Source of the DNA: Escherichia coli
Lineage (GTDB): Bacteria > Pseudomonadota > Gammaproteobacteria > Enterobacterales > Enterobacteriaceae
Reading direction: 5' to 3' (one strand)
Assembly (NCBI RefSeq): GCF_011045215.1
Contig: NZ_CP049201.1
DNA length: 64,000 bases
The notes under the pieces are model-generated. The model worked only from the letters and a program-made list of their open reading frames with translations. It was not told the DNA's origin and searched no databases. Each line of letters opens with the position of its first letter. Position 1 is the first letter of the stretch. This document shows, one piece after another, positions 3,204 to 3,351 of this stretch. The translations under genes and the position numbers were made by a program.

Positions 3204-3207
3204 CACA

Positions 3208-3231
3208 ATTAACTACACCATTAACTACACC
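3208..3231. repeat. 12-bp tandem direct repeat x2 (ATTAACTACACC) just upstream of the integrase start
   Basis: Read directly: 3208-3219 and 3220-3231 are identical. A further 22 nt downstream lies GGAACAACCTGGAACAAGG, sharing an AACAAGG/CCTTGTT core with the 1879-1918 repeat in inverted orientation. Confidence 0.8.
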
Positions 3232-3351
3232 GATCATTGCACAAGGGGGTACAGCGTGGAACAACCTGGAACAAGGAAAATTGAAATATACTTAAAAATC
3301 AAAATGATAATGAACAACGTGGCACATTATGAAGCAGTAAAAAACGCTAAG

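Follow-up and report, generated by a model that had tools for sequence, protein, structure and literature searches.

The window, i.e., the whole stretch of 64,000 nucleotides of Escherichia coli DNA analyzed here (NZ_CP049201.1), carries an integrase gene (int) that is flanked on its two sides by similar short repeats in opposite orientations. The question raised by this locus is which proteins read these repeats. The initial annotation treated the tandem 12-bp repeat and the AACAAGG motifs between int and the comM junction as a single system, but we found that they behave as two classes, which are apparently read by different proteins. Based on sequence comparison, we assign a probability of approximately 0.65 to the reading in which the attachment (att) arm of a PICI inserted in comM would combine doublets serving as arm sites of Int with TTGTT arrays bound by AlpA.

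The island in comM and its attachment core

Positions 1-3375 of the window are the right end of a PICI-type phage satellite of ~14.5 kb, the rest of which lies beyond position 1. The island is inserted in comM/yifB, beside ilvLXGMEDA, and comparison with K-12 placed the insertion point at nt 157-171 of comM/yifB. The genes and the attachment core are as follows.

551-1351, minus strand: gene for an AntA/AntB-type antirepressor, next after alpA (ORF, Pfam, and PHROG)
1404-1592, minus strand: alpA, 62 aa, excisionase/regulator family (PF05930; PHROG 2790, "excisionase and transcriptional regulator")
1956-3185, minus strand: int, tyrosine integrase (409 aa), the arm-binding domain of which is P4-type (Pfam PF13356 and PF00589)
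3352-3561, minus strand: truncated 5' fragment of comM/yifB (ORF translation and K-12 comparison; annotated as a magnesium chelatase fragment in relatives)
3360-3375, no strand assigned: att core, ATCCGCTATTGATAAT, identical in the island end and the attB of comM/yifB (comparison with the empty K-12 site)

Int comprises the Arm-DNA-bind_3 (PF13356, E 3e-17) and Phage_integrase domains. Its conserved start codon is the ATG at 3185, which gives 409 aa and matches the annotation of relatives; no such conservation was seen for the GTG at 3206. AlpA is identical to EcCICFT073 AlpA at 61 of the 62 aa, and Int shares ~85% identity with EcCICFT073 Int. We regard the int-alpA module of the window island as that of EcCICFT073, the model Gram-negative PICI. 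The gene order, in which alpA comes after int on the same strand and antA is found in the window as well, is the layout of Gram-negative PICIs, which go on with genes for replication and packaging interference, measure ~10-15 kb altogether, and use a site that prophages do not. The complete relatives are Gram-negative PICIs of 10.2-15.3 kb with icd-like, DUF4222, primase/helicase, and PerC genes; EcCICFT073 is one of them, and some are capsid-forming.

Of 5,426 complete E. coli genomes, ~880 have the int-alpA module, the two genes of which were never found apart. The relatives of Int were drawn from the complete E. coli genomes and IMG/VR. A natural shuffle, in which this AlpA is paired with an integrase of another clade, was looked for and not found. 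A partial ORF of 186 aa (1-558, minus strand) runs off the window start and overlaps the stop codon of antA; it had no match in Pfam or PHROG.

The att core was located at 3360-3375 by comparison with the empty site, which reads ...CATATCCGCTATTGATAATGGCG... in K-12 yifB. In a relative also residing in comM (L001, the comM island of ETEC4077), the left junction reads ATCCGCTATTTATAAT, followed by island DNA. The proposal that the segment carrying the repeats is the int-proximal att arm beside the comM junction is upheld. The 8-bp overlap is probably 3360-3367, next to which the core-type half site TTGATAA is found. Around the core, the inverted half sites TTATAAA / TTTATAA are kept, while the overlap of ~8 bp varies by insertion site. 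As the half sites are kept and the overlap differs from one site to another, the sequences suggest that this integrase clade switches sites through changes in the overlap. The members of the clade share 77-100% aa identity and are found at at least six chromosomal sites, namely comM, smrA/abgR, roxA/phoQ, clpS/cspD, tqsA, and others (IMG/VR). Separately, TTATCAATTGTGTGTTTTT at 1849-1867 has a 79% likeness to the comM core region in reverse complement, but we rejected it as a chance match because it also occurs in the islands at the smrA/abgR site, which have another core.

Two classes of repeats on both arms

The anatomy, conservation, positional constraint, and covariation of the repeats were observed directly in the genomes compared. 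The repeats in the window are listed below.

1875-1929, plus strand: inverted B array past int, six units at 1875, 1885, 1895, 1905, 1915, and 1925
3208-3219 and 3220-3231, minus strand: A doublet, ATTAACTACACC twice (GGTGTAGTTAAT twice on the int strand; TRF 3204-3231, period 12)
3232-3239, minus strand: linker of 8 bp from the B array to the doublet (equal in length on both arms of relatives)
3240-3274, minus strand: int-proximal B array (TTGTT 3274-3270, TTGTT 3264-3260, CTGTA 3254-3250, and TTGTG 3244-3240)
3313-3347, minus strand: core-proximal weak array of four 10-bp-phased units (GCGTT 3347-3343, CTGCT 3337-3333, ATGTG 3327-3323, and TTGTT 3317-3313)

Both the tandem 12-bp repeat at 3208-3231 and the AACAAGG motifs are present where they had been reported. 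The doublet, which probably represents arm-type sites for the N-terminal domain of Int, is indeed upstream of int, but it does not abut the start codon, as it lies 23-46 bp from the conserved ATG at 3185. The motif adjacent to the doublet, GGAACAAcctGGAACAAgg / GGAACAACCTGGAACAAGG, occupies 3258-3276, with TGGAACAA at 3257-3264 and 3267-3274. The weak array at 3313-3347 is a third copy, GAACAACGTGGCACA, and the alignment of 20 unique int-proximal arms has GTGTT/CTGTT/ATGTK/TTGTT in phase at this position. The region originally delimited, 3204-3295, encloses the doublet and the int-proximal B array, but the weaker units and the att core at 3360-3375 fall outside it.

On the opposite side of int, the inverted array at 1875-1929 lies 27 bp beyond the int stop codon and upstream of alpA. 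The motif CCTTGTT occurs here at 1880-1886 and 1900-1906, within a perfect 20-bp tandem repeat (1878-1919). The exact 9-mer AACTACACC was found in only two places in the 64-kb window, one on each side of int, and TGGAACAA appeared seven times against 2.2 expected. A search of both strands of the 64 kb for YTGT units recurring every 10 bp, four times or more, recovered just two arrays, 1885-1928 (plus strand, five units) and 3241-3274 (minus strand, four units); zero such arrays were found in 200 dinucleotide-preserving shuffles. Thus, the bracketing of int by AACAAGG/CCTTGTT in inverted orientation is real and non-random. The two sides do share an element as initially described, albeit the 7-mer is not the unit: the true unit is a helically phased, TTGTT-like array. 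A lone GGTGTAGT half site is located at 803-810 on the plus strand, inside antA; chance alone predicts approximately two 8-mers of this kind in the 64 kb.

The distal arm of the window island lies beyond the window, and the two arms were compared in relatives residing at five sites (comM, smrA/abgR, roxA/phoQ, clpS/cspD, and tqsA), which provided 27 unique distal and 20 unique int-proximal arms. The presence of the same motifs near the distal junction, for which the initial annotation had proposed a search, was confirmed, as the distal arm of every complete relative possesses both the doublet and the TTGTT units. In the complete relatives, each arm comprises four YTGTK units at 10-bp phase, a linker of 8 bp, and two copies of GGTGTAGTYANT, all in direct orientation. 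The centre of the doublet is separated from the core centre by 142-145 bp on the int side and 88-91 bp on the distal side, and the span from doublet to doublet across the core is constant, being 232-233 bp at all five att sites. On the int arm the arrays lie between the doublet and the core, and on the distal arm the four-unit array lies outside the doublet. The four extra, weaker units nearer the core (3313-3347 in the window) belong to the int-side arm alone. We also noticed that an IHF-consensus-like sequence (AATCAATGGCTTG / AATTCAATAAGTTA) is conserved in the stretch separating the distal doublet from the core, e.g., at ~17160-17175 of L328.

Proposed assignment of the repeats to Int and AlpA

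Which protein binds which motif, and with what effect on int transcription, we infer from the patterns of conservation. We regard the 12-bp doublet as an Int arm-type site, because on both arms it covaries in sequence with the β-hairpin of the Int arm-binding domain while AlpA remains identical. Int bearing the hairpin SVRHSTSGLL is paired with the doublet GGTGTAGT(T/C)AAT, and Int bearing SVKYLTSGKL is paired with GGTGTAGTCA(C/T)T on both arms, which are 10 kb apart. Both variants of the doublet were seen alongside identical AlpA and identical TTGTT units. The covariation involves few independent events, on the distal arm essentially one SVKYLTSGKL lineage, that of the tqsA site; a second, independent SVKYLTSGKL-type lineage at roxA was sought in the complete genomes, and none was found. 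The sole exception to the covariation between the doublet and the hairpin is L001, the two arms of which are mismatched (4575-4598 and 19055-19078), the distal doublet being unchanged. The L001 island is a mosaic, having the Int N-domain of the SVKYLTSGKL type with the CACT-type doublet on the int arm and TAAT/CAAT on the distal arm.

In the modelled N-domain of Int (pLDDT 83), the varying residues sit at the tip of the β-hairpin (strands 33-37 and 43-49). The model matched 3JU0/3JTZ/3RMP with an rmsd of 1.4-1.9 Å and a target-normalised TM-score of 0.79-0.90, and superposed on the solved arm-type binding domains of the HPI and HAI7 integrases at 1.4 Å. Furthermore, the doublet is the same across AlpA variants that are just 61% identical to each other. 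The original assignment to arm-type sites appears to hold for the doublet, which tracks the arm-binding domain of Int, but not for the TTGTT arrays, which do not.

The TTGTT arrays are probably operators of AlpA, the excisionase-type recombination directionality factor (RDF) and regulator of the element, rather than Int arm sites, considering their one-turn spacing, the lack of tracking of Int or of the replication genes, the inverted copy upstream of alpA, and the autoactivation by AlpA. Tandem direct repeats at intervals of one helical turn are characteristic binding sites of RDFs, some of which also regulate promoters (PMC7498355). In the arrays studied here, four to six directly repeated units follow one another every 10 bp exactly, and the element encodes a protein of an RDF family, AlpA. 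A change in the Int hairpin and the doublet leaves the TTGTT units unaltered, and one array sequence was found whether the replication gene of the island is of the DUF927, D5_N-primase, or RepA-helicase type. In all of the relatives with this AlpA variant, EcCICFT073 included, an array is present at the same place upstream of alpA, and the indels therein comprise whole units. Such indels include the 20-bp duplication in the window (the tandem repeat 1878-1919) and a 10-bp insertion in L058, and the phase is always kept. In EcCICFT073, AlpA activates PalpA, and over-expression of AlpA induces excision and replication of the island (PMC6092414). Arrays on the arms for excision, together with an inverted array for the auto-activation of alpA, would explain why int is bracketed.

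Three observations speak against AlpA as the binder of the arrays. The arrays occupy both arms, whereas RDF sites are normally one-armed; AlpA left the activity of Pint in EcCICFT073 unchanged; and where the AlpA is of the second variant (61% identical), the corresponding position upstream of alpA holds three to four copies of another motif, AATATC. The relatives with this second variant have a weak, TTGTTCG-like array closer to alpA. This second-variant array, GAATATCGGG GAATATCTGC AAATATCTTC, is 10-bp-phased and directly follows the terminator hairpin of int (17850-17885 in L005, and others). We set aside a change from TTGTTCC to TTGTTCG with the AlpA variant as weak evidence, since the window-type arrays upstream of alpA already mix both forms. 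The binding element of a Pseudomonas AlpA was uninformative as a guide, as it concerns a larger, Q-like protein.

Under the preferred reading, the N-terminal arm-binding domain of Int would read two tandem 12-bp sites, and the distal and int-side doublets together would give Int four contacts on the arms, set at a fixed distance from the core. AlpA would most likely bind the four one-turn-spaced, TTGTT-like units cooperatively, thereby bending the arm for excision. The inverted array beyond the end of int would most likely be the operator for the activation of PalpA by AlpA. We give a slim chance to an extension in which, through the AlpA arrays on both arms and the inverted third array, a single AlpA filament system could bridge the arms, looping out the 1.3-kb int gene. 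If so, the auto-activation of AlpA would be physically coupled to the assembly of the excision complex, and the RDF would contribute structurally to a symmetric intasome, the doublet span of which is fixed at 233 bp, unlike the one-armed cases of lambda, 186, and P4.

Among the alternatives, the one that fares best is that all of the repeats, TTGTT arrays included, are Int sites, with Int bracketing its own gene and looping or repressing int and alpA, a view implied by the initial annotation. The arrays adjoin the doublets on both arms through the fixed 8-bp linker, the occurrence on both arms is typical of Int sites but not of RDF sites, and Int autoregulation via arm sites has been documented for KplE1 and P4 (PMC2951348). 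Nevertheless, we consider this alternative unlikely. A single arm-binding domain would hardly read both GGTGTAGTTA and TTGTTCC, and the TTGTT units do not vary where the Int hairpin and the doublet covary. In addition, four to six units at 10-bp phase follow the RDF pattern (PMC7498355), and the doublets of helper-embedded PICIs (HE-PICIs) and P4 are not accompanied by such arrays.

It is very unlikely that the 12-bp doublet is bound by AlpA instead of Int, although AlpA has been named as a candidate binder of the doubled motif in HE-PICIs (PMC10111431), where the doublet is directly upstream of an int-alpA pair without an intergenic region. The co-occurrence of identical AlpA with both doublet variants, the variant tracking the Int hairpin, argues against this possibility, as does the identical doublet between AlpA variants of 61% identity. 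Moreover, there is no doublet upstream of alpA, where AlpA is known to act.

We regard as highly improbable that the TTGTT arrays serve the primase/helicase of the satellite as replication iterons, comparable to the type-1 iterons of P4 at ori and crr. The P4 iterons, TGTTCACC, do resemble TGTTCCAC; they adjoin attP (crr) and precede vis (ori) with a spacing of 10-11 bp (4314-4405 and 9310-9413 in L339). However, one array sequence is associated with three unrelated types of replication genes, and the arrays move with int-alpA, not with the replication module. Iterons were rejected, as the arrays disregard the type of the replication gene.

Finally, the possibility that the inverted likeness across int is a functionless product of chance or low complexity is negligible: the shared word is merely 7-9 bp and the region holds many inverted matches of 70-80% of like length, but the 200 shuffles gave no comparable array, and the arrays are kept in islands at at least five att sites with the phase preserved through indels.

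Regulation of int and alpA, and comparison with known systems

A consensus search provided two promoter candidates.

1655-1683, minus strand: candidate alpA promoter, TTGCCA-17-TG-CACAAT (consensus match only; predicted at the same place in EcCICFT073)
3304-3333, minus strand: candidate int promoter, TTCATA-18-TATCAT, weak (consensus scan; -10 partly conserved in relatives)

Hits to the promoter consensus were no commoner than in shuffles and were poorly conserved in relatives, and we claim no promoter. By analogy with KplE1 and P4, the int promoter must lie within the att arm. Int and the RDF repress int in KplE1 and P4 (PMC2951348), and in EcCICFT073 the activity of Pint was unchanged by AlpA (PMC6092414). 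Autoregulation of int is plausible by the same analogy. No Rfam family was detected in 1500-3800, and the predicted fold of the int leader was nothing unusual (z = +0.5).

The closest structural parallel to the doublets is P4 (NC_001609), in which tandem 12-bp doublets annotated as "attP arm sequence repeat" flank the core, all directly oriented. One P4 doublet is 16-39 bp upstream of the int start, as compared with 23-46 bp in the window, and the P4 doublets are 134 and 75 bp from the core, as compared with ~145 and 88 bp in the window family. The P4 integrase has the same P4-type arm-binding domain but shares only ~28% identity in the N-domain, and its arm motif is TTGGGGGCAT, not GGTGTAGTTA as in the window. 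P4 also differs in having an extra, inverted copy of the arm repeat over the int start codon and in being without adjacent TTGTT arrays.

In HE-PICIs (PMC10111431), a doubled 12-bp motif (tgTGTATTGCantgTGTATTGCa / TGTATTGC) is present in two co-oriented copies, at fixed distances of 132 and 81 bp from the centre of attP. The HE-PICI and window motifs have GTGTA as a common core and face int in the same way; in both, int is followed by alpA. On the other hand, HE-PICIs have an integrase of another clade (40% identity) and another motif, and are without the second phased array and the int-alpA intergenic region. The HE-PICI motif was reported to be absent from other PICIs, and the authors were undecided between Int and AlpA as its binder (PMC10111431).

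EcCICFT073 has the same doublets and arrays in both arms and upstream of alpA as the family of the window island; however, it is located at roxA/phoQ, not comM, and has other cargo. Induction and packaging by a helper phage have been shown for EcCICFT073 only (PMC6092414). We found no description of the cis-acting sites of EcCICFT073 in the literature examined.

As for the arrays, 186 Apl, P2 Cox, and P4 Vis are dual-purpose RDFs, small DNA-binding proteins acting on one-turn direct-repeat arrays at att and the promoter region (PMC7498355). In contrast to the window family, in which the arrays are both-armed and the promoter effect known for AlpA is activation, their att sites are one-armed and they mostly repress. 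In KplE1 (intS/TorI; PMC2951348), int is read inward from the att arm, and its promoter and leader overlap Int and RDF sites, as would be the case here. The negative autoregulation is experimental for KplE1, whereas for the window int we infer it by analogy.

Altogether, the architecture is that of a P4-family attachment site with a dual-purpose RDF, a type that is already known, and does not overturn the current understanding. With it, the 12-bp doublet architecture known from P4 and HE-PICIs is seen in one more integrase clade, the third, such that three clades have three motifs. PICIs of both the classical and the capsid-forming kind, EcCICFT073 and the O157:H7 island among them, are driven by the int-alpA module. 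The cis sites can now be named, i.e., two Int doublets 233 bp apart, the proposed AlpA arrays, the site-variable 8-bp overlap, and the conserved core-type half sites. These sites bear on the excision of the satellite upon helper infection and on the spread of the integrase clade over at least six chromosomal sites, and are useful for work on EcCICFT073-type satellites, though unsurprising.

Outside the island, Rfam RF02744 (Rev39_5p_UTR) gave a hit of 157 bits at 3813-4102, over the ilvL leader/attenuator, and the 15-bp tandem repeat at 3902-3938 corresponds to repeated codons of the ilvL leader peptide.
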